From Candidatus Omnitrophota bacterium (GTDB lineage: Bacteria; Omnitrophota; Omnitrophia; Omnitrophales; Aquincolibacteriaceae), in the NCBI GenBank assembly GCA_022711115.1, contig JAKLFP010000006.1, forward strand, positions 86,214 to 150,213: a stretch of 64,000 nucleotides of DNA, read 5' to 3'. A program made the translations under genes and the position numbers. The notes beneath the pieces were generated by a model. It had not been told where the DNA came from, did not search any database, and saw only the letters and a program-made list of their open reading frames with translations. Positions 1 through 37,900 of this stretch are shown here, in pieces (position 1 is the stretch's first letter; each line of letters begins with the position of its first letter).

Positions 1-3000
1 TAAAGTGTTTGCGCCCAGTTGTTTTTCCAAACGGTTCATCAAAATATCCATGGGATCCAGAAGAGCGCTTTGATTTTTAACTTTTCCGGCCGTCTCTTTT
101 TCTATTTGGGCTTTCCTTCCCGCCAAGTTAATCGCTTCTTCCAGTCTCTGCAGACCCAGAACAAATTCATCCATACCCGGGAAAATAGGTTGGGCTTTAG
201 CTGCCTCCAGTTTGCTTTTTGATTTTTTCAGATCGTCTTTTGCTAAAGCGCCTTCGACACCTGCCAAGAAACTTTTTAAAATCTCATTCCGCCGCGTCCA
301 TTCCTGTATGTCCTGCCCGTTTCGGACAAATTTTCCGAGTGCTTCAAGTTCTGTTTCTGAAAGAAGCGAAACCATGGCTTCATAAATTCTTCCGGCTTCA
401 TAAAGTTTTTTCTTTTTGGAATCGACATCCTGCAAGGCGCCCCGCTCCTCCATAAGGGCAACCAGCATCTCAAGTTTTTCAAGTACTAGAAGCTCCTTCG
501 CGCTCTGTTCTTTTGATGTCGCGAGAAAAACCTCGGCGATTCGTTCAACGGACGCAAGATATTCCTGAGAAGTGACCCATGGCAAAATCGTTTGCCGAAA
601 ATTTGCGGCAGAAGTTGCCTTTTTTGTTTTCAACATTTGGATCGTTGCGGCAAGCCGCCCCGCCGCGCCGCCATGTCCGCTCAACGCATCCTCCCACGAA
701 GCTTTGAAAAGAGCGCTACGGCCTTCTTTTTCTTCAGAGAAACCTATTTGGATCCACTCATCCGCATTGGGCCATTGGCCGCTTGGATCGAAATATTCTT
801 TGAGAAAATCAAAAAATTTTGTCCGCACAGCGGAAAGCCGGGTTTCCTTCACGGTCCTTTGATCATCCAGGCCCATGCGCTTGAAAAAAGCCACATTAAG
901 CGCGATCAGAAAACGGTTCTTTTCTCCGGCGTCCGGAATGGCATCGAGATAACTCTGCATCTTCTCTGTCGCGGGAACCATATCGTCAAGAACCTTTTTT
1001 AGCGGTGGAAAAAGAGACGTCCCGCTGGAAAAACGGCCGAAATCTTTCTGAGTGATCAGTGCTTGTCTTGGGTTCTCCTGCATAGCAAGGAATAGACCGA
1101 GTACCGGCATATAGATTTCACGCATTTGTTCTGGAATCTCAAAAAGCCTTTGCCTTTCCGGGGGAACCTTGCCGAACTCCTTTTGAAGCCGTTCCAAAAG
1201 ACTTCGCTTGGGACGCGCCGCTTCTGACAAAGATTGGACGGTACGCGCGACCTGTTTATGAGCTTGTATCAAGGGGTAGAGCACTGAACGCAGTTCCGGA
1301 AAATCTTCGCGCAAGGCTTCATAGGCCTGCGCCGAATCTTGCGGGGTGCCCGTTTCAAGGGCTTTACGAAAATCAATCAGCCGTTGGAATTGAGCAAGCC
1401 GCACGTTTAGATCTTCCACGACACTTCTTAATTCACTGCGCGGCGTTTTAGTTTGCACCCATTGAAAAATAGCCTCCACGCTTTGGACAAAAGCATCTTG
1501 TGAACTTAAATCGAAAGACGGCGGGCTGTTCATTCTTTTTATTTCGCTAAGCTCGATAAGCCGGCGAACCTGTCCTTGATAAATCTCAAAAGCCTGGGTT
1601 AATTCCTTTAAAATTTTATTGGCATAATCAGCCGCCGCCAGATTTTTAATCTTTTGTTCGAGACCGGCCAGATTTTTTTGTTTTTCAAATTCACGAACCG
1701 CGCCATGCCAAGTCTTATAAAAAACGGGCGTTTCTCCGGCGTCCGGGGCATACTTCATCATGAAATCGTCCAACCGGTCTCTCAGCACTTCGCCATCGGA
1801 TGTTTTAAAGGCATCATTGGAATCCATTCCAAGAGAGGTCAAGAAGGCCAGATTGAGGGCAACATACAATTCCCTTGCGGTTTCCGGCTTCGCTTGAAAA
1901 CGCTTTAAGATTTCAGAAGATGCCTTCTCGATCCATGGGTTGATAATGCGGAATTTGGAGCGGAATGCATGCATGTCTTGTGGCTGCAACAGGAAAACAA
2001 CTTTTCCGCTTGTTTTATCGAGATAAGTCGCAAGGAGAAGTCCGAGAACAGGAAAAAAGTGATCGGCTATTGAAATGTATTCCGTGAAGAATCCCATCCG
2101 GCCTTCAAGACCGGAATAACTTTTTGCGGGATCCAATCCGAACTCCCGCATCAGATTTTCTTTGGAAGCTAGGGGTTTAAGCGCGCGGCGGATCTGTGTT
2201 TCGGCTTGATGAAATGCTTGCAGGATCTGTTGGGTAGAACCTGCGGGGATCGTTTCCGGAGAGTGGAGTTTAAAAACACGCCGCTCATACTGTAATTCTA
2301 CTTTCATATGGTCATAGGTGGCCTGTTTCTCTTCTTCGGTCCGGGTGATTTGATGTGAATAAGCAACAATGGCCGGGGAGTTTCGCCCATGCTGGCGCGA
2401 CTCCGGAAAAAGACGCCCGTGCAGGGCGACTTCGGTAAGGAGTTTTTTCAGAGTATCAAATTTTTCATCTGTGTTCATCCCTTCATGAAACGCATATTTT
2501 TGAACCTCCGTATCCGCATAGACCATATTGGGAATCTCCTGAATGTCAACGCTGGGAGAACGAAGCGGCGATTCCAAAAACGCTACGATGAGCTCCTTCA
2601 TGAAACTTGCTTTGCTTTCATGGCCATGGGCCTCTGCCGGGGGGTCGACGATAGGCTGGTTGAAAACCAGTTTTAAACGGGGCGGATAATGGATCAAAGG
2701 TGAGAACTCTTTGCCCAGAGGATCCGCCGGAACGGACGGAATAAACTGGATGTCTACCACGTTCTTCAAGGCACGTGCAATTTCATATTCGGAACGTAGC
2801 ACCGGTCGAAAACCAAGATTGAGCATGACCCACAGCAAGATGATATTGGCTGCTCTGGGACTGGGTGGTGTGAAGCGGGGTTTTTCTGACGATGGAAGCG
2901 ATTCCGGAAAAAGATTCAAGAGACGATAGGCGAGAAGTTCATTGTCCCGGAACGCGCTAACAGTCGTGATTTCATTCGGAGGCTTGGGTTTGTCGCCAAG

Positions 3001-6000
3001 AGACGGCACCTTCGGATCGATGTCCGTGTCCAAATTAGCCAGGATCCGCCGAACCTTGAAGGCATCCCGAAGAAGGACCCAGATGGGATGGTTTTGATCT
3101 GCTAAGAGCAAATTATATTTTTTTCTTGCCCCGACAAGAACATGCATTAACTGAACTAGATTTCCGGTCTTTCCTTTCGTAAGATACTCCTGATAGTACA
3201 ATTTTCTGGCCATTTCTTCTGTGGTAAAAAGATTTTTCCCCGCATTGAGCCGTTCCAGATCTTTGAGAACATATTGGAAAAAGATTCTATGTTGTTCTTG
3301 CAATTCAGGAACGTCATGAGGTGAAAGCGCCACACCCGGTCGCGAATCAATATCAAACAAGCTGATATCTTGAAGCAATTTCCGGTACTGCAAGCCTTCC
3401 TGAACCCGATTCAGTTGGTCCATGACATCGGGATTGATCCGAGAAACTTCTTGAGCTTCGACATGACCTTCGGCATCCATACTTAAATAGGAAATACCAT
3501 GGGGCTCCGAAGGAGCTTGGACGGCCATATGAATGCTTTTGTCGGCTCCAAAAACAAACCCGAAAATATGTTCAATGGTATTTTCTTTCGCATTCGACTG
3601 CGTTGTGATTTTAAGCACACCCGCGCCACTGACAGAAAACACATAAAAGTTTTGATCCGGGAAATCACTTCGAATCTCATTTATCCGCCTCTGGAGGGCT
3701 TTGGAATCCATCACGATTTTTCCGTTTGCCGCCGGAGCTTGCGACATTTTCGAAGAGCCTTCCCCGCTGCGCACTTCAGAACGTACAGGACCATCTGCTC
3801 GTGATTTTTCTACAGCCTTTGAAACAGCATAGATGACCGGCTCCCAGCTCACCTGACCCGCTTTATCTTCCAAGATGCTTGTTAGCTGGGTATGGACGTA
3901 ACTGCTTATCGCATTGTAATGAGGCCGGACTTCACCGCTGCGAACTCTTGCAACAAAAAACTCCACCCATTTTTGTCCGGAACCTTCGCCAAAAGCTTTA
4001 TCGATTTTTTCAAAAGAAGAACGCACCTCCGCTCGATGTATAGACCTATGTTTCGGTTGTAAGATTATCGCGGTCGCTCCCCCATCATAGAGTTGCTCAA
4101 TTTTTTTAGACGCATACCATTGGCCTTCAGGGTCGAGATGCTCAAGATATCGGCGATAGCGGTCTTGCAGCATTTGCCTGAAATAGGTATGCCTGCTGAT
4201 GGTGTTATCCCACAATGGAATATCCGCGTCCTTTTCGACAGAGCTTTTTTCCAACAGCAAATGGGATCTTAAACTATTAGCAATCACGGCCGCCTTGGGC
4301 AATTGGGTTAAAGAATGAAGCGACGCTGTGGTGATCCTGACTGCATTATCAAACGGGTCTCCTTCTTCACTCCCCCCCAGCGATAAAACTCCACTATTGA
4401 GAATAAGATCGAATTTTTTCCCATGAAAATATCCTTTCGTATCCATCAGGCGCGCATCACCGTTTCGGGCATCTATTCCATTTTCTCTTTTACCATTCCA
4501 TCCTCCGACCGTAAGGGTCGACATAGCGCCACCGGCTTTTTTCAGAATATCATTGAGGAAATTCTCAAACACTCCGTCCGAGCCAATCTCTAAAATGTTT
4601 TTGATGCCATAATGCCTGAGGAGAAAGAGCAGCCGGTCCTCGGGATCCGATGGAAGCTCACCGTCAAAATCGTGCTCAAGATGATAAAAAATCATTGCTA
4701 AAAGATGCACATAATTGAATCTGGGAAGCTCAAAGCCTTCTTCGCCTTTCTTAATCAGCAAAGCTCTTGCCAAATAGTAATATTTTTTGGTTTTTGAATC
4801 CGGGAATTCTACGTAATTGAGAGGAACGACAGTTTTCGAATCATAGCGTTGTTGCATGTCCGACTGCAGTTTCTGCCATAGAGTAGGTTCAACAATATTG
4901 GGATGCGAAATAATGGACTGGGATTCTTGCTTGTACATCTGTGCCACAACGGTTTTGGATTGATCGAAAATGGGAGTCAACTGACCTTCAAAAGGTAAAG
5001 TTGCATTTCTTATTTCGGAACGATCAAAGGTAAGGCCTTGATTTGCAACAGTGAGACCGTGCTCTTCCAGGACAAGGGGATCAAGTGAACGGAGTAAAGC
5101 GGCAAACGGATGGTCGGCATCACCGACCTCGCGAAGACCTGTATTCAAACCCTCCAAATATTGAGTCCCCATTGCTTCGCTGAGCTGTGACTGAATAGCG
5201 CCTAACCCCATGAGGAGTGTAGGTTGGCGAATCGTTGACCCTGCCAAGACCCGGTCTTTGATCTCATGCGCACGAAGCTTAAGACCGGGTCTTGATTGTT
5301 CGGTCATAAGCTTGAGATAGCACTTGCCGTCGATTTTTTTCGAAATCCTTGGCGTAACGCGTATAAAAGAAATCTGGTGATCCTTGAAATATTGCGAAAG
5401 CCCTTCCGAGTGAAAGCCCCCGGTTACGAGAACCGCGTTTGGTTGATTGAGTGATTTCATCCGCCGCAGCATTTTTTCGAACATAATTTTTTCGCGTGCT
5501 TCCGCCAGCTCATAGAATCGCAAAGCGTCCACTACCCTGTCTTGGACGGTTCCGTTCCCTGGCGGATTATGCTCAGCGTTCAAAAGACGGTTTTGATCGT
5601 TGCCCGCTGACCGTTTTTCTTTGATTGTTCGATATTCTTCCCTGCTTAGTTCCAGAGCAAAGAGCTTCTTCAACAACAAATAATCTTGGTAACGATGGAT
5701 CACTTCTTTTTCAAAAGTTGTCTTCCCGAGCTTCTCCAGAACTTTTTCATTAAGTTGTTCGATTTCCTTAAATAGATCCGTCGCTTGAAGTTCGCTGGAA
5801 AGAATCGCCACGCCTATCCGACGCGTAAGGTTGGGATAATCTTCGAAACGAAAACCTTTCGGGGCAACGATACTATAAAATTCTTCAAAAAAACTTCGGG
5901 ACTCAAGACTCGGGGCTGGGGACTTGACTAAAAACGTTTCAAAACCATCTGCCATGGTGCCCAGTTTATGATCTATGAGCCATTTTTTCAGTTTTTGTAT

Positions 6001-6942
6001 TTCAGATTCAACAAGGGACGAGTTCCGGGCAACAAGTTTCTGTAAATTTTGGATTTTAAAAAATCGAACTAGCATGGGCCATTCAATCTGATGGCGAGTA
6101 TCGTTAAAATCGTGCCCTAAATAATCACGGGCATATTTCTCAAGAAGCGTTAAATGCGAAAGGATATCCTTGCCGGCTTCTTCTTGAAAAATCCAGGCTT
6201 TAAAAAAATCTTTTAGCTCTTTATTCAGAACCTTCGAGCTCTGCACCATAATCTTTCGGCGCATCTCATTCAAAAAACGATCCGTTTCGTTCTTGTGGCC
6301 GTAAACATCTCGAAAGACTTCAAGGTTCTTGCGATAGAGCACTTCGTCTTCAACTCCATAGACCACAGACTGAAGACTGGCGACTGAAACTTTAAAGTCT
6401 TTGGCCTGACGTCTTTGGCCGGCAGTCTGTTTTGAAAGAAACCGCTCCACGCCGCCAACGAACCCGAGTTTCGTCAATGCATCGATATATTTTTGATTCA
6501 GTTTTTCATCTTTGAAAAAAGCAAGTCTTTCCGGTTTTAACTCTCCGAAGCCGCCTTCTAAAAGAATCGTGTCGAACCCGTAACGGTCCTTCAGATGATT
6601 GAGAATGCGTTCTGTCTTGATCTGTGCTTCCTCACTGCCGTGGGCATCTTCGATATGGACAACCAGACTGGAGACTGAAAATGGAAGACCGAAGCGAGAG
6701 GTATTGCCAATTTCGGGTTTATAAATCTCGTTGATGATACCGATTTCGGAAGGAATAGCGATTTGATCGACCAATGAGGAGATGCTAGTCTCTAGTCTCT
6801 GGTCTACAGTCTGTAGTCTTGGAATTGAAAGATCCGCAGGCGCAGCTTGGGTGATGGTGGTGGTGGTGAAAATAAATACAATGATTCCCGCCACCAAGCG
6901 AATAGGAAAAGAGAATCTGGCACTTTTCTCGACGAAGCGCAT
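1..6942 (-). CDS. Giant modular protein, paralog of the 35-kb ORF (gene A). It is 5'-complete (ATG at 6942, GGAG about 14 nt upstream) and runs past the window start with no stop (at least 2,314 codons in window). Its N-terminal ~640-aa module is homologous to module 1 of the giant ORF and to the gene at 61396..63573. In-frame junction motifs: RSEIR (5008..5022), RAEVR (4021..4035), RSEVR (3769..3783), RSELR (1426..1440).
   Basis: Hand translation of the minus strand from 6942 gives MRFVEKSARFSFPIRLVAGIIVFIFTTTITQAAPADLSIPRL...VHIEDAHGSEEAQIKTERILNHL...AVLVTGGFHSEGLSQYF, which aligns with VHIQDAHANYDAQKNIENILRHL / AVLVTGGFHTNGF in the giant ORF. No stop met in the stretches translated. The ORF track shows no ORF longer than 136 aa on any frame across 1..6950, as expected if the real ORF is open-ended and omitted from the track. 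All four motif copies share the frame of the ATG at 6942. Confidence 0.75.
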   Translation of the reverse strand, partial: MRFVEKSARFSFPIRLVAGIIVFIFTTTTITQAAPADLSIPRLQTVDQRLETSISSLVDQIAIPSEIGIINEIYKPEIGNTSRFGLPFSVSSLVVHIEDAHGSEEAQIKTERILNHLKDRYGFDTILLEGGFGELKPERLAFFKDEKLNQKYIDALTKLGFVGGVERFLSKQTAGQRRQAKDFKVSVASLQSVVYGVEDEVLYRKNLEVFRDVYGHKNETDRFLNEMRRKIMVQSSKVLNKELKDFFKAWIFQEEAGKDILSHLTLLEKYARDYLGHDFNDTRHQIEWPMLVRFFKIQNLQKLVARNSSLVESEIQKLKKWLIDHKLGTMADGFETFLVKSPAPSLESRSFFEEFYSIVAPKGFRFEDYPNLTRRIGVAILSSELQATDLFKEIEQLNEKVLEKLGKTTFEKEVIHRYQDYLLLKKLFALELSREEYRTIKEKRSAGNDQNRLLNAEHNPPGNGTVQDRVVDALRFYELAEAREKIMFEKMLRRMKSLNQPNAVLVTGGFHSEGLSQYFKDHQISFIRVTPRISKKIDGKCYLKLMTEQSRPGLKLRAHEIKDRVLAGSTIRQPTLLMGLGAIQSQLSEAMGTQYLEGLNTGLREVGDADHPFAALLRSLDPLVLEEHGLTVANQGLTFDRSEIRNATLPFEGQLTPIFDQSKTVVAQMYKQESQSIISHPNIVEPTLWQKLQSDMQQRYDSKTVVPLNYVEFPDSKTKKYYYLARALLIKKGEEGFELPRFNYVHLLAMIFYHLEHDFDGELPSDPEDRLLFLLRHYGIKNILEIGSDGVFENFLNDILKKAGGAMSTLTVGGWNGKRENGIDARNGDARLMDTKGYFHGKKFDLILNSGVLSLGGSEEGDPFDNAVRITTASLHSLTQLPKAAVIANSLRSHLLLEKSSVEKDADIPLWDNTISRHTYFRQMLQDRYRRYLEHLDPEGQWYASKKIEQLYDGGATAIILQPKHRSIHRAEVRSSFEKIDKAFGEGSGQKWVEFFVARVRSGEVRPHYNAISSYVHTQLTSILEDKAGQVSWEPVIYAVSKAVEKSRADGPVRSEVRSGEGSSKMSQAPAANGKIVMDSKALQRRINEIRSDFPDQNFYVFSVSGAGVLKITTQSNAKENTIEHIFGFVFGADKSIHMAVQAPSEPHGISYLSMDAEGHVEAQEVSRINPDVMDQLNRVQEGLQYRKLLQDISLFDIDSRPGVALSPHDVPELQEQHRIFFQYVLKDLERLNAGKNLFTTEEMARKLYYQEYLTKGKTGNLVQLMHVLVGARKKYNLLLADQNHPIWVLLRDAFKVRRILANLDTDIDPKVPSLGDKPKPPNEITTVSAFRDNELLAYRLLNLFPESLPSSEKPRFTPPSPRAANIILLWVMLNLGFRPVLRSEYEIARALKNVVDIQFIPSVPADPLGKEFSPLIHYPPRLKLVFNQPIVDPPAEAHGHESKASFMKELIVAFLESPLRSPSVDIQEIPNMVYADTEVQKYAFHEGMNTDEKFDTLKKLLTEVALHGRLFPESRQHGRNSPAIVAYSHQITRTEEEKQATYDHMKVELQYERRVFKLHSPETIPAGSTQQILQAFHQAETQIRRALKPLASKENLMREFGLDPAKSYSGLEGRMGFFTEYISIADHFFPVLGLLLATYLDKTSGKVVFLLQPQDMHAFRSKFRIINPWIEKASSEILKRFQAKPETARELYVALNLAFLTSLGMDSNDAFKTSDGEVLRDRLDDFMMKYAPDAGETPVFYKTWHGAVREFEKQKNLAGLEQKIKNLAAADYANKILKELTQAFEIYQGQVRRLIELSEIKRMNSPPSFDLSSQDAFVQSVEAIFQWVQTKTPRSELRSVVEDLNVRLAQFQRLIDFRKALETGTPQDSAQAYEALREDFPELRSVLYPLIQAHKQVARTVQSLSEAARPKRSLLERLQKEFGKVPPERQRLFEIPEQMREIYMPVLGLFLAMQENPRQALITQKDFGRFSSGTSLFPPLKKVLDDMVPATEKMQSYLDAIPDAGEKNRFLIALNVAFFKRMGLDDQRTVKETRLSAVRTKFFDFLKEYFDPSGQWPNADEWIQIGFSEEKEGRSALFKASWEDALSGHGGAAGRLAATIQMLKTKKATSAANFRQTILPWVTSQEYLASVERIAEVFLATSKEQSAKELLVLEKLEMLVALMEERGALQDVDSKKKKLYEAGRIYEAMVSLLSETELEALGKFVRNGQDIQEWTRRNEILKSFLAGVEGALAKDDLKKSKSKLEAAKAQPIFPGMDEFVLGLQRLEEAINLAGRKAQIEKETAGKVKNQSALLDPMDILMNRLEKQLGANTL

Positions 6943-8591: not shown

Positions 8592-9200
8592 TTAAAATCG
8601 CATAAAAGGGTTGGTTTTCTTTTCGTGACCCATCGTTGACTCCTCAGCATCGCCATAGGCATGGCCTGGAAAAACCTTGAGAGTTTCTTTCAAACCGGCT
8701 AGTCGCTTCAAACTTTCCCGCATTTTCAGTTCACTGCCTCCCGGAAGGTCACAACGCCCGCAAGCCCCGACAAAAAGTGTGTCCCCGGTCACCAGCCTAT
8801 CCTCGACAAGAATACATTGAGATCCTTCCGTATGACCCGGCGTGTGTATCAATATCAACTCCACATTGCCGATCTTCAGCAGAAAGCCTTCATAAGTTTC
8901 CAGAAGACGCTCTTTGATATCCTTGAGATGCCTTGCCTCTTTTTCGTGGACATAGACAGGACCCGCTATTTTTTGAATAAGATCGTTGACGCCGTTGCAG
9001 TGATCAAAATGCGTATGCGTCAAGACTCCGGCCACAACCTTCATTCCATCTTTCTCGGCTTCGCTCAAAACCGCATCCACATCCCAGGCCGGATCAACCA
9101 CAACGCATTCTTTTTTGCTTTTGTCCCCGATCAAATAGCAAAAATTCTGCATATAGCCAACCGGTATTTGTTTAAAATAAAGATTGCCGCTGTTACTCAC
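8592..9200 (-). CDS. MBL-fold metallo-hydrolase (hydroxyacylglutathione hydrolase-like).
   Basis: THTHFDHCNG (HxHxDH motif) plus downstream His and Asp ligands (HTPGHTEG, FPGHAY). Confidence 0.75.
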   Translation of the reverse strand: MSNSGNLYFKQIPVGYMQNFCYLIGDKSKKECVVVDPAWDVDAVLSEAEKDGMKVVAGVLTHTHFDHCNGVNDLIQKIAGPVYVHEKEARHLKDIKERLLETYEGFLLKIGNVELILIHTPGHTEGSQCILVEDRLVTGDTLFVGACGRCDLPGGSELKMRESLKRLAGLKETLKVFPGHAYGDAEESTMGHEKKTNPFMRF

Positions 9201-9684
9201 CGCATGGACACCTTTTCGTCTGGATACGTTCGTAATAAATACTTTCTATCTTAGGCTGGTCGCATAAATTCAAACGGGATTGTTCCGAAAAAGAAAACGG
9301 AAGCGGTGGATAAAAAACATCGCCGTCATAATTCTGATGAATCCGCGTCATATAGACCCCATCAATGAGAGAAAGTGTTTGCATGAAAAGATCCGCTCCC
9401 CCAAGGATAAAAGCCTTTTGTGTTTTGATTTGCCCAAGGGCATCTCCGAGCGTATCGAAGAATTGCGGATTGTCACCTCCTGAGGGAAGAGATTTGCTCA
9501 GAACAAAATTCTGACAATCCGGCAACGGTTTGCCGAGACCTTCATAGGTTTTGCGACCCATGATCACCGTGCTCCCAATGGTCAACTTACTGCGGTGTTC
9601 CCTGTCTTCTGGAAAACACCAAGGTATTTTCTGGTTCTTTCCGATAATATGATTTTGAGCGACCGTCACGATATGAAATAGCAT
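9193..9684 (-). CDS. folA: Dihydrofolate reductase, tandem copy 1.
   Basis: 163 aa; HIVTVAQNHIIGKNQKIPW...TVIMGRKTYEGLG...FILGGADLF is the DHFR fold pattern. Confidence 0.8.
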   Translation of the reverse strand: MLFHIVTVAQNHIIGKNQKIPWCFPEDREHRSKLTIGSTVIMGRKTYEGLGKPLPDCQNFVLSKSLPSGGDNPQFFDTLGDALGQIKTQKAFILGGADLFMQTLSLIDGVYMTRIHQNYDGDVFYPPLPFSFSEQSRLNLCDQPKIESIYYERIQTKRCPCGE

Positions 9685-9726: not shown

Positions 9727-10221
9727 TCACGCTTGTTTCTCATAAAAAACAACTTCAAGCAAGGGATCGTCCTGCAGTTTTTCCCGTGATTTTTCTTTAA
9801 AGGCAGCCGGGATTTCCGGATAAAAAACATCGCCCTGGTAATCGGCGTGAATACGGGTGAGATAAATGCCGTGGGCTCGATTAATGGAAGTCCTGTAAAG
9901 CTCCGCACCCCCAATGATAAAAGCGCGCTCGGTCTTCACATTTTTCAAAGCGTCCTCGAGCGTGGAGAAATAGGTTTGACCTGGATAGGGATTTTGACCG
10001 CTCCGATCCAAAATAAAGTTTTGACGTCCCGGCAACGCCTTGCAACCAAGGCTTTCAAATGTCTTGAGGCCCATAATCACCGTCTGGCCTGTGGTCATTT
10101 TTTTGAAATGCTGCAGATCTTTTGAAAAATGCCAGGGGAGTTGATTCCCCTTCCCAATCACTCGGTTATTCGCAACAGCCACAATATGGTAAAGCACAAA
10201 ACCTCCAAACTTTTTGACCAA
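9727..10221 (-). CDS. folA: Dihydrofolate reductase, tandem copy 2 (about 45% identical to copy 1).
   Basis: 164 aa; IVAVANNRVIGKGNQLPWHF...TVIMGLKTFESLG...FIIGGAELY. Confidence 0.8.
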   Translation of the reverse strand: MVKKFGGFVLYHIVAVANNRVIGKGNQLPWHFSKDLQHFKKMTTGQTVIMGLKTFESLGCKALPGRQNFILDRSGQNPYPGQTYFSTLEDALKNVKTERAFIIGGAELYRTSINRAHGIYLTRIHADYQGDVFYPEIPAAFKEKSREKLQDDPLLEVVFYEKQA

Positions 10222-25875: not shown

Positions 25876-25992
25876 AGGGAAGGCATTATAACGCAATTTC
25901 AAAAAAATCGGGACTAGTTCCTCGGATCTTGAAACTCTTTTTGGTTTTTTATTGAGACGAATCTCATGGAACGAAATCCGAATCCGTGCTTT

Positions 25993-28900
25993 TTACGCGC
26001 TTCTTGCCATCGCGAACTGCGCTTGGACTTCCGTCACAAGCGTATTGATGCGGTCCCCAGCAAGGGTGAGGAAATTCTTGAGCATTTTAGGCATCACCAG
26101 CATCGTATCCGGCCATTGCGCTTTCAGGGCCACGGCCAAAGGTTCGCTCGCATAGGCCAATGGCTTGAGATTTAAAGATAAAATACCGGTACTGCGCAGA
26201 CGCGCGGCTTCTATATCCAGGAGTTTTCTCGCTTCATCCAGATGATCGGCTGGAAGGATCGGCGGCCGATGGGCTTGGGCAAGCTGGATATTGATTTTTT
26301 CAAGGAAGCCGCGGTCTGCGGCATTACGTACTAATACGATAACAGGCGTATCGCCGAAAATCGGACGGATAGCCGCGATCAAGCCATGATCCAGCGCAAG
26401 TTCAGGAGCAAGGATCAAGGCATCGGAGGTGGAAATTGTTTTAATCCCAAGGGCTTTAAGCGCTTGGGTGAAACGAACTTTGTCCAGAACCTGTTGAGCC
26501 TTTTGCACCATAGAATCCGGCAAAAGCGATATGGCAAGTTCCGCCGCGTTAAAGGCATAAGCCTGAAGCGAAACAAGGCCATCAGTCAGCTTTTCCGTTA
26601 CTCCTTCGAAACCTTGCAGGTTCCCGCCACCTATTTTTCTGTTTTCCCTGATCAGGTCTTCGATAGTTTTCACGGCAACACGCTCTGGCGTAAAAGTCGT
26701 CAAAGTAACCGTAGGAAGCGGAACAGACAAAGGAACATTTCCAACAACGGCTGCTGTCATGGTGGGTGTTACCGTATGAATCGCCATGGTTTGCCGCACT
26801 TCCGAACGTGACGCCTTTCCTTTGTCTGCCTGTAATTCAGAATGGATAGGTTTAAGATGTAAAATTTGCGCATGATCCCCATCCCTGACCGGTACGCGAT
26901 GTTTCCAACCCGAAAGCAAGTTATCGCGTTCTCCATAGTTTTCCCAGGTTAACATATCCACTACTTGGTAACGGACGCCCGGGTCGATCATTCTTTCAAG
27001 ACCGTTTGTAAGTGTTGTCGATACTTTCCCGTCACCGGCTAATTCACCCTCCTGAATGCCGAAAATAATCGAGGCAAAAACCATTTGCCCAGAATCACTT
27101 TTCCTTGCGAAAACAAGAGAACTCTGATTGGAAGGATCAAAAACTGTCCATTGATGTCCTTCAGCATCGGAAAGATTGTCTCCAAAAACAGCTTTGATCT
27201 CTGTGACTGCCTTCCGAAGTTTTGAGTAATATCCCGGGTTCCAATGTGCAACTTCGGATTTTTCTAGAAGTTCCGGTCTAAAAAGAGCTATCAGGGTCAT
27301 TAAGGGCTTTATGTTTTCTCCAAAGTAATGGGCCGCATCTTTAGCCGAAAAACTGGCCATGATCGCCAATTGTTCAAAAAAGTGGTCCGACCGTACAACA
27401 CCGTCTGTTAAAGTGTACCCTCTGCCTTTTTGGCGGACGAGTTGTTTCATAAGCGCCATCGCAGAGGTTTCACGGTTTCGGATCTTTTCCGCAATATTGG
27501 CAACTTCCGGCAACTCAATGGCCTCCCATTCTTGGACTTCCACAGCGATGGGCATCGAGATCGACGCAGGAACTTCCGAAGCGACTTCATCGCTATGTTG
27601 AATGGTGTGCTTTTTCTCGTATTTGGGGTCCGAGATTCGAACAAGAGGAACATTGCCCGTTTTTCCGACCAACCCGGCAAAGATAGCCGGATCGATGGCG
27701 ATGGAAGTCCGAGACTTGAAAAGTTTCCCCCCGCTCGAGGGGACTTCTTCTCTCACAGGAGCACCTGTATTAATATTCACCTGAAGCGGTTTTCCTCCTC
27801 GTGGAGTAAAAATGAAAGATTGGATCTCGGTGCGCCGGCTCTTTAGGGGTTTGGCGGCCGGATGACCTTCAAGGTAACGCACAATATAAACAGCCCAAGG
27901 CTGATATTTGGGACTGACGTTTTGCGTCAATTCTTTTCTTAGTTTATGGGCTTCCGCGGGAGAAGCTTGCATGTAACGTTCAAACCAATCACCCGCCATA
28001 CGAAGCAACAGTTCTTCTGTCAGATCCAAAGCTTCCAAATTAAGCCGGATTCTTGTCTTTTCATCTGCCGTTTCCGCTTCCGCGGCTAATTGTCCGATCC
28101 GTTTTTTAAAGGGCTCCAATCCTGAAGAAAATTTGGTGAGGACTTGCTCGCGTAAATATCTGAAGATATCATCGTAATAAACATGATGCCGTAAGCTGTT
28201 TAAGGCTTCAACGCCGCGCGAAGAAGGGCTTCCCGTGGGCTGCCATGTTTTGATTTCTCGAAATGAACGGAACATCCCGAAAAGCCCCAAGCCTTCAGCT
28301 GAATGTTTTCGGAATCTGCTTAAACCCTCCCACACAAAATCAGGCGCCTGCACAGGAACCGCATAATCGGAAAACTGATATTGAAGCTGGCTAAATAACG
28401 CTTCCCGCTCTTCATTTTCCTTGAGCATATTTTCAAACAAATAGGCGTGCCCCATGGCCTGTCCTGTCACCATATCCACACGCCAGGCGGCCGCTACGGA
28501 TTGATACATACGTTCACGGCGGGTCGCAGGATCTTTTCTTAATGCTTTGACTGTTTTCAAGGCTTCAAAGAGACTGCGGGCCGAAGGGCGCCTCCCCCCG
28601 CCTTCCTGGCTACTTTTCTCGCTATCGTCATAGGCTACAAAAACACCGCTCAAAATCTCCCAGTCACCGCTTCTTAAACGTTCCCTCAAAATGTCCTGAG
28701 TGATCACTTTGGTGTTCGGTTCCCCTTTTTCATTCAAGACATCGATCATCGCCCCTGTTTTTCTGTCGCGGATCACCCAAACCTCGGGGTTGCTTCCGGC
28801 AAAAGGTCCGACAACTTCGCCTCCGTTGGCCATGACTTTCATCATGCTCGTGGCGGAAGCTTCCAGATCTTCATCGGACAGCATAACTCCTGCTTGGGCT

Positions 28901-31900
28901 CCTCGAAAAATAATTTGCGCTTCGTAATAGGTGTAATCTTCGAGAGTGGCTATCCGGTCTTCCAATCCGAGAAGTTCCGTCATAAAACGTATATAAAGAA
29001 AACGGTCATGCGCGTCGTCTGCAAAAGTACGCCCGCCGATCAACAGGCGAGACATGGTACGCCGCAAAACTTCAACTGCCGGCTGGTTTTTAAGACGTTC
29101 CCGAAGCCCTTCAAAATCATTTTTATAGCGTCCATGATTTTGATCCCTTCCATCTCTATACGCTTTCCAAAAAAGAAAAAGTTGATCGAAAGGCCTTGCA
29201 AAAGGGCCGGAAAATTCCACTTTAAGCCCGGCTTGAGTCACCGCTTCTTCCACTCTTCGTTTGAGCGTTTCTTCGGCTTCTACGGCTGTCATGATAGGTT
29301 TTTTTATCTTTTGGGCGGCTTCGTCTGCGGCTTTGGCAGCGGTGTCTTTCAATCTTTCTTCATATTTATCCGGACCTTTATAAGGTACCTGGCGTCTGAC
29401 ATTCGATGAAATAGGATCGCCAAGAAGCAGATCGCGGGCTTTCCCATAATTTTGTTCAAGTGTCGCCCAGTTTTCTGGTCGGTTTTCTTGAATCGCTGTC
29501 GAAAAAAGTTCCTGCATTTCTCTTAAATGTCCCGCCAGCTGCGTGTCATCTAAATGGCGTTCCGTTTGATAATCTCTAAACGTGCTCCCAAGCCAGTCGC
29601 TCGCGCCTTTGAAACCGCGTTTTTCGCGGAGCCAGATCAGAAGCTGGGCTGCATCGGCCGCGCTGACCCATTCATTTTGAATCTTGAATTGTTCGCGCAG
29701 ATCCGAATGTTTTTCAAGCTCCTGGAAAAATTGCCGGTCGTTGGCTTCTGAAGGAAGTCCGTTTTCCGGTTTTGGGATCTGAAGTTCTTGCTTAAAACGT
29801 TCGATCAAAAGCCTTCTTGCCGGAGACTGCCAACGCGGCAGAAAAACACCGTTCGTACTTCGAATACCTTTAGAAGGATCATAAAAACCTTTGACGCGAT
29901 GCCATGCGGCGCGAAAAATATTTTTTAGAAGCGCCGGTAAGTGTTCCACAAGATTGACGCCGGAAATGAGATGAAAAACCTCTGCCGTAAACCCGGCAAT
30001 ATCGATCATACCGTCATGAACCAGCGTGGAGCGCAACCATTCGGGGAATCCCAAAAGCTCGTAGTGACCTTCCCAGGCTTCAAAAAGACCCGGACGAAAA
30101 ACCGTATGGTTCAGTGTCACTCGCTTCGCACTCTTGAGATGCCGCACCGGGAGGCTCACGAACACTTCATGGTCCAGAAGAATGATGTTCTGGGGATTGT
30201 TTTGATTTTCAAGGATTTGGATCAGACGTTCGCTCGCGGCGCTGAAGAAAGCCATATCAATTTCGCGATTACCCGTATCGTCGTAAACCTCCAAAAAGGC
30301 CGGCGCTTCTTCTTGTCCATTCGGACCTTTGACATAGGCGTCCAGATAATACTGCGGTGATTTGTGAAATTGAAAATAAGTTTTGTAAACCCGGAAAGAG
30401 ACCGTTCTGGGAACTCCTCTCACGGGAAGTGTGACCTCCAAGGCAATATCGGTAGGATCTAAAAACTTTTTGATGATCTGACCGAGAAGTTTCCGCTGAT
30501 GATGATCATAACCTTTGCCGGGCTTATTTTTGATGAAGTTCCAAAGCGGATGAATCCCGGTTACATTCATCCCGAGCGCAGCCCAGGCTTCAAAAAGGTC
30601 CGGCATCAAAGCTCCAAGGCCGCCTGTCAAAGTTGTTTGGGAAGCTTCCCCTGCAGTCCAAGCGCTCATCTCCGCAGCGATTTTTTCCAGAACAGGCATC
30701 GGAAGACCGCATTCGAATTGCCGGCTATAAATATGCTGTTTATGAACTCGGGGCGTATTAACTTCGACCCACTTTGGCACCTTTTGCTCCCGCAATTCTG
30801 AACGTGGAAAAGACGGGGTTATCCCGAGTGTTTTGAAATCAATATTGATCAGGCGGGGATGGCTTAAAAAATCCAACGCGACATCCCAGGATTTCAGCGC
30901 AAGACCCGCTGCGACAAGATTTAAAACGGTCCTGCGGTACAACTCAAAATCCGGACGGTCGACAAGCTCATAAGCTTCCATGCCCTCATAGAAAGATCCA
31001 TGGCCTGCAGCGGCAAGCTTTTGGATCCCTGCCAGGAAATGGGTCTTGGTGTTTTCTTCGAAAATCTTTTTTCTGACCCAAACGATTGTTTTCCCTCTCA
31101 CACCGTAATACCAGCTTGTCTTCATATCCACTTCGACAAATTCATCTGGCTCCGACGGCCGCTCATAGGTCACAAGCCACTGAAGCATACCGGCTAAATA
31201 GTTCGGAGTAATAACGGAATGGTCTATCAAGCTTCGCACCTCGGATCGCCGGTAACGAATGGTTACTTTGGAATTGTTGATCACGGTGTTTTCCCAACCG
31301 CGGGAAGAAGCAGTGACCGATTGGGTTCCCCAGCTTACGGAAACAAACCGGTATCTATTCATATCTGAAATGCCCGCAGCCCTGATTCCGTCAGCACCTT
31401 CAAAATGATTGTCAATGAATTGCCTCACGGTCAGTCCGCGCGGCACATTGATAAAATTGATTGCGATCAGATTTGAAGCGGGCGCAGAAGGTTTCGGCAT
31501 CTCTTGTTGTTTAGGCGCCGGCGGAAGTATTCCCATAATCTTCGCCGCCATTGCTTCCCCGGCAGCTTTCGCTTTTGTTTCATCCGCCACAGTTAAAGGT
31601 ATTTCTTTTTGAACTGGTTCGACGGGTGTTGTTTTTACCGTTGGCACAGACGGTGTATTCCGGGAAGATAGCGCGGCAGCTTCTTCGGTTTTGGACAAAG
31701 CTTGTATGACAAAATGGAGCTCATTCGTCCACGGGTGATCAGGTCGACGGTCTAAAATAGTAAGCGCTTGGATCCGATGGAGAGGATAATGCTCAGGCTG
31801 GTCTCGAAGCATACGGCGCACCGCTTCAGCAATACGTTCCGGAGCTTCGCCCATGCCCACATGATGCACAAGCTTGCGATTGCTATAGCTTGTATCCGTG

Positions 31901-34900
31901 GACGTTTCAAAACTAATCTCATCAATCCTCATCTTCACCTGGAACATAAGCCGATACACAGCATCCCGGACCTCAGAAGGCGTACGTGCAAACACCTCCA
32001 TAGACTTGGATTCTGCTAATGTTTCCGAAACCTTTTTTGGGCTAATTTTCTCTGAAACAGTCATCACGTCGATCTTCTGCCCGATTTGAAACTCGGGTTT
32101 AGGCGCGACAGTCGGTTGAAGTGTGAGCGTGATCTCGCCTTTGTTGTTCTCGGCAGTCAATAAGAACCATCCGTATATTTCTTGGTGGGATGGCACATTC
32201 GCGAAAAAGTCGTTGCCCGTATCGTTCCAAAATGCTGAGGATTGAATCCGGCGACCTGCGCTTTGATAAATAACTTCAATGGCGTGGTCCCGCGCGATAT
32301 TCCACCGATCACCGATTTGGCGCAATGCGTCGGAAATCCGGTCAAATGTCAGCGGTTCAGAGGTCCACGTGTCTTTAGACGGAGCATAAGAAACGCTTAC
32401 AATGCGGTTCGCGTTATAACCGGTTGAACCGGCTTTCTCTTGGATATAAAGCGTCCCGCCTATCAATGCCTCGAATTTTCCTTCGTAAACAGTTCCATCC
32501 TGCATGGAAAGCTTCAACATCGTCCCCAAAGCGACATTTCCCGCTTGAGCATCCGTTTTAAATTGCGCGAACGGGACTTTGGCAAGCAACGTTTCCGCTA
32601 TGTTTTTGGCCATCCCTTCCGGCTTTGGTTGCTCTTCACCGCGCACTTCCGAGCGTTTGGAATCCACATAGGTTAGTGAGGGAGAGAGACGATCATCGGC
32701 AAAATGCAGCCAAAAAATTTCGCCTTTCTGAATAAGAATATCTCGCCATTCCATCGGACGGCTATAAGCATAACGCTGGCCTTTGCTAGAAACCTCTGCA
32801 CCGACCAGGGCCTTATCACTGAGCGAACGAAGACGGATAAGAGATTCCATCAGATCCGCGAGAGACGATTTCTTTAACGCCTTGACTTTTATGAGTGCTT
32901 CCGAGCCATGGATTATCTGGACAGCCTGCTGCGAAGCGCTAAGCCCGGAACCCGGACTCACTAGGCTTCTCAATTCCGAGCGGGACTCGGCGATGAGGAA
33001 GGAATCGCCGGCTCCGGCAATTTCGAAAGTTTTCAAATCCGGATTCAGAAAAGAGCGCCGGAACGCTTCGCCCAAGGACATCCGTCCCGCACTATCCAAT
33101 TCAATAAAAATGGCCCTGCGATGAATTTGATCCATATAGTCTCTTGCCGCAACCGGATCTTGAGGCGTTGTTTGCTCAACCATTTGCTGCCATGCTGTCG
33201 AAGGATAAACCCGCAAGGCTTTGCCTGCCTTTTCCGATACAGCGATAAGTTGAGTCTCCTCTCCTAACATGGTTCGGAAAGGTGCGGGAAGTTGGATCCT
33301 ATTTTTATCATCCACCTTGAAGGTATAAGAGCTGGTGAAGATCACCGGCGCCCGCACTTCAGAGCGGGAAATCACGGGTAAGAGACCTTTATATTTAAGA
33401 TCAGGTCTTTGTATGCCAAGAGAAAAATTTGAACTGCCATCCGCGTACCGGATCACCCATGGTTTTTCGGTTTTGCTTTGGGCTTCCAGCAGTTCAGAAA
33501 GCGATGGTAACTTCACCGGTTGGCCGTTCTTGAACCATTCCAAAACTCGGTTTTGCTGCGACGTATAGCCCAATTTTTTTGCTAGGGTCTCGCGAAGCGC
33601 TTGGGAATCCATGAACTTCATGGGCCAAGGAGCTTTAAGATCAGGCGGGAACCTTGGATTGGTGCGAATCCCGTATACTTGTTTAATTTCACCATCCTGG
33701 GTGATAAAAATTGCCTGGAGAGGGAAACGGCCGTCAAAGCTGCTTCGTAATTGGTCACCGTCAAAAAACCTGGTTTTAAACCGGCCAAAGTGAACGGAAA
33801 TGTTTTTGGCGCCGGTCCGATAAACGAGTTCATGGTCAGGTCCAAGATAAAATCCTTCGAATTCCGGGCTTCTCGGGTCCTGCGTTCCGTTGAACGCGAC
33901 AACTCCCTGCTCAACCGGCTGCTGATACTTCTGCGCCAAATCGAACAGGATTTGTTCTCCTTCAAAATAAGTGACATACGGATCAAGCGCCTGCGCGAGG
34001 TCCCTGTCCCCGAAAAGATTGCCGACGATTTTGACCGTAACGGGTTGCACTGCCTTTGCCCCTTCCGCTTGAGCAAGGCTGATGATCTCGATGCTGTTCG
34101 GATCCTTCGCAGGTTTAAAATCCACGCCCTCGATCAAATAAAGTTTGTCGCGCCAGGCCTGAAGCTGGCTAATCAATTCATTGATAGTGATCTGCGGTCC
34201 GGTTAATGGTTTCAACGTAATCCTCGATTGCCCGATCTGTATCCACCTTGTCGGGCTCGTCACGGACCGGCTGTAAAGAACTTGGGTTTCCGGTAACGCA
34301 ATGGCCGGTTCGGGTTTCTGTTCAACGGGTTCTGTTTTCTTGACTTCTTCTACAGGGGCTTGCGCTGTCTGAACCGGGGTCTTGGGAGAAGCAAATCCCT
34401 GCCGTTGCTGAGCCGCTTTCTCACGGAGTTCTTGCTCTTTCTGAGCTACTTTTGACACCCTGACATCCCACTGCCCGCTACGGCGGGCGTCGTCTTTATT
34501 CATTCGCACTTCAGAGCGGGAGGTAAGCTCGACAATTTGGACGGTAAGTCTTTTCATTTTCTCTTCAGCGGAAGTATTGAGTAATCGATAGGCCGTAAAC
34601 GGTCCCGCAAGCATTTCCGTCACTTCTTGAAAGCCATATTGCCTGACCTTCGGAATAGCGTAATTGAATTCCACAACCGTGACAGTTTGAGAAGCGCTAT
34701 CGACTTTAGCGATCACTCTTTTCCATGAAATGGAGCCGAGATTGGAATTGTCGATGCGCCAATCCTTAGAGATCAACACGCTATTTTCTAAAGTATCGAA
34801 GTCCCCTGCCGAGGTTTGAGAAGTGATCCTGCCGCTTGCCGTATTATTTTCAAGGAGCTTCAGAAGATCGCCATACGGGATGAATCTAACTTCCCCTTCC

Positions 34901-37900
34901 GCTTGCGAAATAACAAGATAAGATTTGTATGCGTCGTGTTCTTGTTCTGCGACAAAAAAGCTAAGATCGCCTGTGGTTTCATCTTTTTGGAAGTCAAGGA
35001 TCCGTTTCCCGGCAAGGAATGTTTCGATTTCTTTTTGAAGTTCCGCGGCAGAACGCCCATTCGCGGCCTCAAATTCAACCTGCCGTTCACCTTGCTTCAC
35101 GATTAATTTTTGTCCGGATTGTTCAATGATAATTGCCGGCGGCGCTGAGTAAGGCCCACCCCACGGAATGCGTCCTTTTCGGGACAGGCTGCGTACTTCC
35201 GAGCGCAACGCAGGTTTTTCCTGCGGTAATTTTCCCAAAACCGCTCTGGCCGCATCATGAACAAGGCTTTTTCCTTTTTCATCAAGACGATTTCCTGAAA
35301 CAAGCTGCTGGACAACATTGGTCACACGGGCATTTACAAAATCGATGAGATCCTGGACCGTCAAACCTGAAAATTCATAATAGGCCGGTTTGCTTTTGGC
35401 CTGCAAGGCGGCTTCATCCGTTTTTGTGATTTCGATGCCGAATCTTTCTTCGAGAGACTGCATCAGACTCATTTCATCCAGGGAATCCATGCCGAGATCT
35501 TCTACTAACCGATCCGTCAGACGAATTTCTTCCTCGATCGCGGGAGGTAAAACCTCTTTTAAAATATCGATGACCTCTTGATCAATATTTTCACTCACCG
35601 TTCCCCGCATTTCCGAGCGACTGGCCTTTCTTCTTTCATTGATGGCGTGCTGAAAGGCATTCGAAAGTATTTTGTAGGGATTTTGCGAATAAAAATAATT
35701 TTGCCACAACCAATGCGCCAGACCTGAAATCCCGATAAAAATCATGCTAAACGCAACCACGCGGGGGATCTGTTCCTCCGCCGGCAAGAAGAATGTTGCC
35801 GTCCCGATAAGAGGAAATATAATCCCCACCAGGACCTTCATAAAAGCACTGCTCCGTCGGAATTGGAGTTCAGCAAGAAAAGAGGTGGGGTTACCGTTTT
35901 CCGCTTTTTTGTAATTGTCGGCATATCGGTTTTTCATTTTTTCCCACAATTGTTCTAAGCGGTCTAAGGTTATCCGGTTTTTACTATTTGATCGGAGATA
36001 TGCTCTGACCGATTCATCAAGAGAGCGCAATTCAGACCTTGCTTCCGTAAAGAGAACAGGATTGATTAAGTCATGGCTTAAATTAAGGGCATCATATTTC
36101 AAAGCTTTTTTTTGCTGTAAAAGTTGAATGCTTTTTGAAGGAATAGTTCGAAACTCAATACGATCAAACTCTGGGACTGTTTCTGTCCTGACGTTTTTGG
36201 TCGGTTTGATGCCCATGGAAGATATCCAGCCTTCAAAGGTTGTTTCCCCTGCTTCTTCCTGAAAGAAGTAAAAACGAAGTTTGAACGGCCCTTGAACAAT
36301 GTCCTCGGGTCCCAATTCGCGGGACCGGATGGTCCCGGCAGCCCCCGCTAACCATGAAAACCACACAAGATGGGAAAATTGTGTCCTTGGCAAATGTTCG
36401 TGGTGGGAATTATAAAGTTTATCGGGAAGTGCGAGATAGTGCTGTACCGCCTTACGGTTCTTAAACAACGTGATCATAAGACCTAAGGATCCTTGCTCAT
36501 CACCTTCAAAGTCATGGGCATCCAACCGAAGCTCCCGCTCCCATCCGATGCCTCCATTTCTCATATTCCAAACAAGCGGTTGGTGGACCAGATCCGACAG
36601 TTTGAATAAAGGTCCCTGAACAGCCCGTACTTCGGAACGAGTTTCCAGCTTCCTTGGCATAAAGAAATTTCCCGCATCGTCCTTCGAATCCCCCATAGAA
36701 AGCTGCTCGATGCCTTTAAAAACTTCGGCAAAAAACTTTTTTGCTTCGGCCTGTCTTATAGATTTTGAAGCGATAGAAAATTCCACTGTGATATCACGGC
36801 CATAGCTATTCAGCATCGCCTGCGTGTGATAGTTCAAGCCTAAAAGGGTCATCTCGTCCCACGACAAAAGATTAAATCTCTGTCCGTCGCTGCGAATAAT
36901 GGCTGCTTGAAAACTCTTGTCTTGAACAAGATATTTTCTTTCGAGAAGATGTTTGGTTCTGGCGGTAGGCGCCGTGTGAAGCCCGAGAGCGTTTCCGATG
37001 CTGTATTTCTTTGCCGCGATCCAGCGATCTCCTATTTTTGTCAGCTTAAAATCAGTTTTTCTTAATTCGGAGCGCTGATCGTTCATGTAATTCGGCTTGC
37101 GGGTCACCGGAAAAGCAGGCTCGGCGGTTTTTCGGGCATATGCAAGCAGGTATTTCTGCATTTTTTCGTATTTTGTACCGACGTTGATCGGGCCTTCGAT
37201 CCCACGGATGGGCTCCGTCAGTGTGAATCCCGCGGCCCGAAGAAGTGTTTCGAAATAACTCGGCGTGACAGTAAAGACCCAGCCATTGAGAAGTCGATCG
37301 CCGCTTAATTTTTGATTTTTAGGCTTGAAGATATTTCCCCCCGGGGCCCATCGGACAAAAAGAGGCGCGTCTTTTTCGAGAAGGTCCCTGAGCGAAAGTA
37401 ATGCGTTTAGCTGTTCTTCGGGCGAAAAATAAAGGAGCACATCGCTGATAAAAATCCCTCCGAAAGTTTTCCCGTTGAAATCAGCCGTTCGGAAATCGGC
37501 GGTCATGAACCTGTCTTTAGACATGTCCCCGAAAGAGGGATCTTCGAGAGCGGCTTTGATAAGCGACGGCGAGATGTCCGTTCCCCAAAGGTCGGTAAAT
37601 CCCTGTTCCTTAAATTTCTTGAGCGCCCTTCCGATGCCCATACCCACATCAAGAATGCTTTTATCCTTGCCGGCCATCAACGCCAGGAACTGATCGATCG
37701 TTTCTTGATGCGGAGAAACGTTCCAATCGCGGAGCTTATGGCGTTCAAAATCAAGGGAGAATTCATCATCCGTCCAGTACCGGACATTGCTGATCGCCGG
37801 GTCGGGGGGTGATTTTCTGAAGGTTTCTACCGCCGCCTGGAATTCCGGAGAAGTTTCCATCAGCGTTGCCAAAACCCGGGCAAATTCCGGATGATGTCTT

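Follow-up and report, generated by a model that had tools for sequence, protein, structure and literature searches.

The stretch of DNA considered here (the window, 64,000 nucleotides; positions 86,214 to 150,213 of contig JAKLFP010000006.1 in the Candidatus Omnitrophota bacterium assembly GCA_022711115.1) holds on its minus strand a giant gene of 35 kb, gene B, and the 5' part of a second, gene A, which runs off the window at position 1. The two products have a homologous leader domain at the N-terminus, after which a five-residue word, R-[S/A]-E-x-R, recurs in frame and divides the chain into modules of protein size. Genes of this kind make up a phylum-wide family in which the spelling of the word is particular to the genome, and the arrangement is consistent with a polyprotein that would be cut at the word. 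Coordinates of the features are collected in Table 1.

Gene A opens at an ATG (6942-6940) with GGAG and a purine-rich stretch ahead of it, and minus-strand translation of its frame meets no stop codon between 6942 and 1. A preliminary description of this DNA had held the frame to be open, naming an in-frame stop as the finding that would overturn it, and had supposed that the window understates the gene. Both points stand. The JGI contig Ga0116241_10000037 (462 kb) is identical at 100% to the whole window, and on its copy of gene A (locus L004) 3,166 codons were read directly without a stop. The JGI call for gene A is a protein of 9,554 amino acids (aa) that uses an in-frame start at window position 4773 (L004 7331), an internal Leu codon (aa 724), and drops the 723 N-terminal codons that hold the entire leader and part of module 2. 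Since these 723 codons lie in frame upstream of the call, the total open reading frame (ORF) is put at about 10,277 aa, or 30.8 kb, with 3,166 of its codons verified open, a figure that by implication places gene A within the length feature of the Omnitrophota giant proteins, at least 10 kaa (thousand aa). The truncated call also explains why the leader query of a word-indexed protein search missed gene A itself, and public annotations of leader-headed giant genes may miss the leader systematically. Counting the JGI contig, overlap with the window at 100% identity is seen in four other assemblies (two JGI metagenomes and two ENA assemblies), the stretches in the remaining three being shorter; the organism occurs in JGI 3300010429 and 3300025706 and in ENA ERZ795054. 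Part of the gene A protein is also in NCBI as PLO78_07890, labelled Candidatus Omnitrophota bacterium. With A and B on one contig the genome carries at least two giant genes punctuated by junctions, as had been proposed.

The earlier claim that the N-terminal 640-aa module of gene A matches module 1 of the 35-kb gene is confirmed by an alignment of 586 columns between A aa 15-581 and B aa 9-566, in which 31% of the residues are identical (E ~1e-61), and in a profile search with the leader a partial copy of gene A (protein P0004) is the top match, with E 1e-262. Outside the N-terminal module gene A shows no match to gene B. The leader begins with a signal-peptide-like segment, and a Sec-type N-terminus of this sort is present in 143 of 160 N-complete leaders, the N-flank being more positive than the C-flank in 142 of those 143, which predicts export of the giant chain. 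The fold of the leader core matches, at a moderate level, members of the Tiki superfamily with their parallel beta-sheet core, the site-specific endopeptidase RRSP among them. H101 is invariant in all 206 leaders compared and H96 in 190; the distance from H101 to E129, 28 residues, is that of H85/E113 in Bcr135 and H3902/E3930 in RRSP (PMC6254334); and around the second His all 205 leaders compared keep G508, G509 and H511, while 204 keep F510. E198, E384 and E393 are likewise invariant in 205-206 leaders and, together with R293 and R483, are invariant residues to which no counterpart in the superfamily is assigned. The leader is thus a candidate for keeping the hydrolase-type active site of the Tiki/TraB/erythromycin-esterase superfamily. 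Compared with the Tiki/TraB/PrgY/GumN/ChaN/Ere superfamily it has the parallel beta-sheet core, the His-Glu spacing of 28, a second His in a G-x-x-H setting and an association with the membrane, but it differs in having no sequence-level match, in a helical insertion of about 300 residues and in that the first Glu of the 2His/2Glu set is not conserved. No Pfam model (TraB_PrgY_gumN, Cofac_haem_bdg and the erythromycin-esterase models included) and no NCBIfam model matches the leader even at E 0.1, nor does its profile match PDB sequences. Members of the superfamily range from site-specific endopeptidases (RRSP, Tiki) to esterases and non-enzymes (Ere, ChaN, PMT), and Tiki/TraB peptidases have been predicted as the leader-cleaving enzymes in graspetide loci.

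Downstream of the leader the words RSEIR, RAEVR, RSEVR and RSELR are all in frame where the preliminary description had placed them, and extension of the contig past coordinate 1 with a rescan for junctions, which it had suggested, adds two more, RSEMR at aa 2542 and RSEVR at aa 2976 (L004). Gene A therefore has the family features of a homologous leader, a first junction right after it and further junctions in frame downstream. The four words in the window compare with 0.04 expected from amino-acid composition (a Poisson chance of about 1e-7 by our own arithmetic), and gene B has 34 against 0.22 expected. In the other five frames of the window there are 0-3 matches each, none of them in a credited ordinary gene: nine fall within ORF segments of 11-82 aa, and a non-canonical RAEPR, judged from coordinates only, lies in a 927-aa open segment around an ABC-transporter auxiliary gene, upstream of its called start. 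Over the family as a whole 1,249 motifs are found in 649,778 aa where 36 are expected. A logo of 353 family junctions has both Arg residues conserved at 100% and Ala at position 2 in 17%; its information is confined to the five positions, with small residues preferred at −1 and +1 and no further conservation in the flanks, the upstream side included. The flanks are linker-like from about −28 to +12, order-promoting residues being depleted and Pro, Gly, Ser, Thr and Ala enriched, and the distance between junctions across the family has a median of 215 aa, the size of a protein. Modules that open with a signal or transmembrane segment of their own amount to 5.4% versus 2.8%, a weak enrichment and not a general rule. 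All five positions of the motif use several synonymous codons (Arg CGN/AGR, Ser TCN, Glu GAA/GAG), and because the codons vary at every position the conservation sits in the peptide and not in the DNA. A signal at the nucleotide level was rejected on these grounds and on the absence of Rfam and tRNA matches from the window. The string RSEYE, first suggested as a variant junction, is indeed present at 2782-2796, but it is without the invariant fifth Arg, although both Arg positions are fully conserved in the 353 junctions, and hydrophobic residues immediately precede it (FRPVL·RSEYE·IARAL, judged by eye); it is not counted as a junction.

It is in gene B that the relation between junctions and proteins can be seen. 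Nine groups of Pfam domains are recognised (among them GDH, HEAT, malic enzyme, UDPGP with NAD-epimerase, IMPase-like, methyltransferase, ACP-like and MraZ-like), each lies within a single module, and all 34 junctions are placed outside the domains (P ~0.003). In comparison with solved structures a complete GDH fold begins about 10 residues past its junction (E 6e-89) and the IMPase-like N-terminus lies within a few residues of its own; overall, natural enzyme N-termini in gene B come 0-12 residues after junctions. The MraZ-like module gave no PDB match, and the same test for domains straddling junctions found both P0035 and P0148 to be almost Pfam-dark. At gene B aa 3040-3368 (50977-51963) stand four consecutive junction-bounded modules of 101-108 aa, one with a Pfam HEAT match, which look like small repeat proteins set in tandem. 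The modules also move as units. Between B aa 10098-11425 and aa 2348-3745 of P0019, a protein of 5,183 aa from an unrelated context, identity is 56.5%, and the alignment begins and ends exactly on junction words in both; other high-scoring segment pairs begin or end on junctions. At the level of sequence this shows modules behaving as evolutionary cassettes swapped from junction to junction.

Gene A cargo is far less legible. In the 3,166 aa that can be seen there is no Pfam match above threshold, only one weak PrmA/HemK-like methyltransferase signal, which comes from the module between the junctions at aa 2542 and 2976 with its S-adenosylmethionine (SAM)-methyltransferase-like GxGxG. Module 2 has by eye a candidate methyltransferase-like pattern, 'ILEIGSDG ... 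FDLILNSGVL'. The cargo in the window is likewise without NCBIfam matches or matches by phmmer to PDB, searches returned no homologue of the cargo other than its own copy, and an AlphaFold2 model of aa 600-1100 made without an alignment has a predicted local distance difference test score (pLDDT) of 35 and is uninformative. The view that gene A is of the same architecture as the 35-kb gene holds in that a homologous leader is followed by R-S-E-x-R junctions, but it extends to the N-terminal ~31% of gene A only, because the verified sequence ends about 21 kb before the C-terminus. A comparison of module content between the two genes, which the preliminary description had called for, finds the N-terminal module common to both and no other match, the gene A cargo being without recognisable enzymes apart from the weak methyltransferase signal.

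Table 1. Features of the two giant genes, in window coordinates; all lie on the minus strand.
Feature	Position	Strand	Remarks
Giant gene A, visible 5' part	1..6942	−	2,314 codons, ~22% of the gene; ORF runs on past position 1
Signal-peptide-like segment	6838..6942	−	aa 1-35; basic N-flank, hydrophobic core LVAGIIVFIFTTTTI, A-x-A-like site ITQA/AP
Leader core	5338..6765	−	aa ~60-535; alpha/beta, Tiki/TraB/Ere/ChaN-like fold (moderate match), ~300-aa helical insertion
Leader motif H96-I-E-D-A-H101	6640..6657	−	H101 first catalytic-type His
Leader E129	6556..6558	−	Glu of candidate His-Glu pair, 28 residues past H101; invariant in 206/206
Leader motif T507-G-G-F-H511	5410..5424	−	second catalytic-type His
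Leader tail, low confidence	5023..5337	−	aa 536-640, up to first junction; pLDDT 24-40 over aa 535-640
Junction 1, RSEIR	5008..5022	−	aa 641-645, in frame
Cargo module 2	4036..5007	−	aa 646-969, 324 aa; no database match
Junction 2, RAEVR	4021..4035	−	aa 970-974, in frame
Cargo module 3	3784..4020	−	aa 975-1053, 79 aa; no assigned identity
Junction 3, RSEVR	3769..3783	−	aa 1054-1058, in frame
Cargo module 4	1441..3768	−	aa 1059-1834, 776 aa; holds the non-junction RSEYE
Junction 4, RSELR	1426..1440	−	aa 1835-1839, in frame
Cargo module 5, start	1..1425	−	aa 1840 on; ends outside the window at RSEMR, aa 2542
Sister giant gene B	25993..61080	−	35 kb, 11,695 aa; leader homologous to that of A, 34 junctions, cargo of whole enzymes, trailer; reference for the architecture
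Gene B trailer	25993-26790	−	ends ...FAMARSA; no Pfam match

The family to which the two genes belong is large. Although a word-indexed homology search gave just 3 leader homologues, this was an artefact of its sensitivity and not a sign of rarity, since an exhaustive hidden Markov model profile search returned 9,151 cluster representatives, of which 4,861 reach E<=1e-30. In all of these proteins, with lengths up to 7,818 aa, the leader is N-terminal. A scan of species-representative genomes with the leader motif T-G-G-F-H as its pattern gave at least 549 loci, often several per genome; the named organisms among them are nearly all Omnitrophota/Omnitrophica metagenome-assembled genomes, and the remainder carry 'uncultured bacterium' titles apart from one 'Candidatus Taenariivivens baikalensis'. 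Most leader-headed ORFs continue past the end of the 10-kb flank, and the same word recurs along them, its first copy usually at aa 600-730. Complete members end, after the final junction, in a weakly conserved trailer of about 270-310 aa with the terminus -[K/T/A/S]-[S/A]-A-COOH (SA or AA in 96 of 149 representatives), seen in gene B and at further loci, L016, L021, L027, L028 and L031 among them; its role might be that of a degron, of a secretion signal or of a mark recognised by a protease that processes C-termini. This family of leader, cargo and trailer is apparently undescribed in the literature searched. Relatives that consist of the leader only exist as well (L002, L003, P0003). P0003 (L002 2180-4264, 694 aa), a minimal member, has the leader and a short tail ending in -TQTSA but neither junction nor cargo. 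Its neighbour is a VitK2_biosynth (MqnA-like) gene, and gene B has such a neighbour too (window 25024-25902); P0003 may resemble an ancestral form that later received cargo cassettes. At some loci the leader ORF is split from the rest by a change of frame with overlapping ORFs (L001, 721-2469 and 2441-12469; L008, L037, L049, L084). These splits were rejected as natural gene boundaries: with breaks that are tens of residues away from any junction, or that coincide with N-runs and scaffold gaps, they look like frameshifts or assembly errors, programmed frameshifting being a possible alternative.

The word itself is spelled differently from genome to genome, as RSExR, RAExR, RPExR (RPE[S/A]R) or [AG]ASLG, and is uniform across the giant paralogues of any one genome. 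In CAYQTU (L027, L032, L041, L051) it is RPExR, all 23 junctions having Pro at position 2; DAOPYQ (L036, L068) uses RAExR, CAZDVO and JAZDJU use RSExR, and in JAKQXH (L038, L052, L078), JACROU and ASOC it is replaced by [AG]ASLG, which is likewise a bounded five-residue word. Dialect variants were noted also at L044 and L055. The dialect does not follow the leaders, for leaders 54-67% identical in other genomes head RSExR genes, whereas the paralogous leaders of CAYQTU, which share one word, are only ~31% identical. Because dozens of unrelated sites change in concert within a genome, a single genome-wide and highly specific reader is called for, and such concerted change is what would be expected if the word co-evolves with one specific recognition enzyme.

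The reading that seems to accommodate these features best, and to which a probability of a little under 0.6 is given, takes the giant product for a polyprotein that an endopeptidase particular to the genome cuts at the junction words. A signal peptide and a leader of about 500 aa would open the chain, unrelated protein-sized cargo modules divided by R-[S/A]-E-x-R would follow, one site-specific endopeptidase per genome would recognise the word and cut at or beside it, and the modules would then be freed as separate proteins. Cleavage at the word, the bond cut, the enzyme and the compartment are here what we infer and not what we show. Several kinds of cargo (GDH hexamers, malic enzyme, MraZ, ACP) work as free-standing oligomers or as proteins that diffuse, which is hard to reconcile with permanent tethering in a chain of 11,695 aa.

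A number of points count against a cleaved polyprotein. The cognate protease was found neither by Pfam searches of A and B, which contain no peptidase domain, nor beside the loci, where across the family no conserved protease gene was seen but housekeeping synteny only (UvrD-like helicase, glycine-cleavage genes, acyltransferase). The predicted export is hard to reconcile with NAD(P)- and SAM-dependent cargo enzymes of cytoplasmic type. That a module is a protein is demonstrated for gene B alone, as the gene A cargo has no recognisable domains; and even in gene B the GDH module (aa 2126-2938, window 52267-54705) has about 320 extra residues after the complete GDH with no junction between, so the junctions must miss some protein boundaries. 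The word occurs 2 times in ordinary genes where 3.3 are expected, in a test of avoidance that is underpowered. As for the leader as a source of the activity, position 99, the first Glu of the 2His/2Glu set, is D or E in only ~60% of leaders and N or T otherwise, and no conserved leader residue switches between RSExR and [AG]ASLG genomes.

Quite which enzyme would cut is a separate matter, and the obvious candidate gives an answer that is possible but on balance doubtful: the leader is itself the junction endopeptidase, acting in each chain or pooled in trans, which would free itself at junction 1 and then process the others. It is the sole universally conserved enzyme-like domain, it is always N-terminal with the first junction at about aa 600-730, its invariant His/Glu/His have the Ere/RRSP spacing, its superfamily includes the endopeptidases RRSP and Tiki as well as the graspetide peptidases predicted to cleave leaders, and leader-only relatives are known. 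However, the dialect tracks the genome and not the leader lineage, paralogous leaders at ~31% identity sharing one word; the conserved residues are the same for the charged RSExR and the uncharged [AG]ASLG; and the superfamily has esterases and non-enzymes too, with the fold match moderate only. It may be that the leader catalyses the cut while specificity is set elsewhere, or that it has another role.

Somewhat less probable still, though the chief competitor to cleavage of any kind, is an uncleaved mega-scaffold tethered to the membrane, in which the word would be a docking or marking site in the linkers for one partner, be it a chaperone, a scaffold or an enzyme that modifies the Ser/Ala position. 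The statistics of the word and its genome-wide dialect would suit any single specific reader, conserved leader and trailer at both ends would suit a protein working as one piece, the genes and their surroundings yielded no protease, and a 2026 preprint (bioRxiv 10.64898/2026.06.07.730766) reads Omnitrophota giants as membrane-anchored. Against such a scaffold stand junctions placed at natural enzyme N-termini and modules that travel as junction-to-junction cassettes, and permanent tethering would ill suit oligomeric enzymes and diffusible proteins such as the ACP-like and MraZ-like modules. Moreover Ser at position 2 is replaceable by Ala or Pro, and so modification of that Ser cannot be essential.

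A reading of the word as a signal in the DNA or in translation (a scar or target of cassette insertion, 2A-like recoding or ribosome skipping, or what is left of intergenic regions after fusion) is disfavoured and seems quite improbable. The exchange of modules exactly at junctions and the division of the giant ORF into overlapping frames at some loci would fit it, but the five codons vary synonymously with no conserved nucleotide word, the upstream conservation that a 2A-like nascent peptide needs is absent, the ORF breaks lie away from junctions, and the window has no Rfam match. That the long ORF is an artefact of assembly or annotation (a chimeric contig or pseudogene, its motif without function) can be set aside, for while the data are metagenomic throughout, the JGI call omits the first 723 codons and several related loci have frameshifts or N-runs, the identical overlap recurs in four other assemblies and in the NCBI protein PLO78_07890, 3,166 codons run without a stop and thousands of homologues share the grammar.

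Giant multi-enzyme proteins of Omnitrophota are known already; what is new, in the databases and literature searched, is the leader-junction-trailer grammar with its dialects. West-Roberts et al. 2023 (bioRxiv 10.1101/2023.11.21.568195), under the name 'Archaeovorins', suspected cleavage and stated that the cleavage points are not known, and the 2026 preprint, which covers 176 complete Omnitrophota genomes and has a 'multi-enzyme metabolic cluster' class, makes no mention of cleavage, motif or junction. The giants of both preprints resemble A and B in phylum, in genes of at least 10 kaa and in an N-terminal signal peptide, and resemble B in the tiling of HEAT repeats, methyltransferases and sugar-nucleotide and central-metabolism enzyme domains on one ORF; in contrast, a junction motif, a conserved leader, a trailer and genome-specific words are reported in neither, and a junction motif in a relevant context was not found elsewhere in the literature searched. 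The peptidase domains, C39 and S8, to which the preprints point as possible processors are both lacking from A and B.

Among better known systems, the viral polyproteins (picornavirus 3C, potyvirus NIa/TEV, nidovirus Mpro) are the nearest in plan, with one ORF, many proteins and a short word in exposed linkers, and their words differ between lineages in step with the protease. The present genes differ in lying on a cellular chromosome, in having up to 34 or more sites per ORF, in cargo of housekeeping type and in a cleavage that is here conjectural, and no chymotrypsin-like or papain-like protease module was found in A or B. MARTX toxins are also giant exported proteins with conserved ends and interchangeable internal modules, which in their case are freed by cleavage, and the MARTX effector RRSP is of the same Tiki superfamily to which the leader fold is tentatively matched. 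In MARTX the processing enzyme is a cysteine protease domain within the chain, and its cuts fall after Leu in linkers of loose definition. MARTX differs from the present family in its toxin cargo, in its size of 3.5-5 kaa and in having no strict five-residue word, and neither its cysteine protease domain, nor its glycine-rich terminal repeats, nor any other RTX-type domain was found in A or B by Pfam. Precursors of ribosomally synthesised and post-translationally modified peptides with several cores (cyanobactin PatE, with its PatA/PatG sequences) and Kex2/furin precursors carry cassettes flanked by words of 4-5 residues for a dedicated protease; these cassettes are peptides of 6-40 aa as against folded enzymes of 80-1,300 aa here, and they have other words and subtilisin-like proteases.

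The neighbours of the two giants in the window are ordinary chromosomal genes, among them SOD, two DHFRs, ThyA, an ABC transporter, GGT and transketolase. The dihydrofolate reductase genes stand in tandem (9193-9684 and 9727-10221, of 163 and 164 aa) immediately downstream of thymidylate synthase (10278-11072). Two further ORFs have no Pfam match: one of 725 aa (61396-63573, plus strand), divergent from the start of gene B, and one of 199 aa (23681-24280, minus strand), downstream of gene B.

Overall the finding goes beyond the first reading of the locus to a phylum-wide family with genome-specific dialects and a conserved C-terminal trailer, and the leader (~9,000 cluster representatives) and trailer together mark out a large protein family for which neither Pfam nor NCBIfam has a model. 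With the junction words as a working rule, 'dark' giant ORFs in their thousands can be divided into pieces the size of proteins for the prediction of structure and function, where, according to the 2023 preprint, the lack of known cleavage points had blocked structure prediction of the pieces. The word and its dialects also make the choice between a single chain and a cut one directly testable, through neo-termini at R-S-E-x-R. If cleavage is true, the genomes would supply orthogonal pairs of protease and site that might be useful in biotechnology, and this would be the first cellular system to employ the viral polyprotein strategy at scale, without known precedent. The wider proposition, for which the odds seem evenly balanced, is that a free-living or host-associated bacterial phylum routinely expresses large parts of its proteome, housekeeping-type enzymes included, from thousands of leader-cargo-trailer genes as virus-style polyproteins of up to more than 10,000 aa, whose junction word would co-evolve with a genome-specific endopeptidase.

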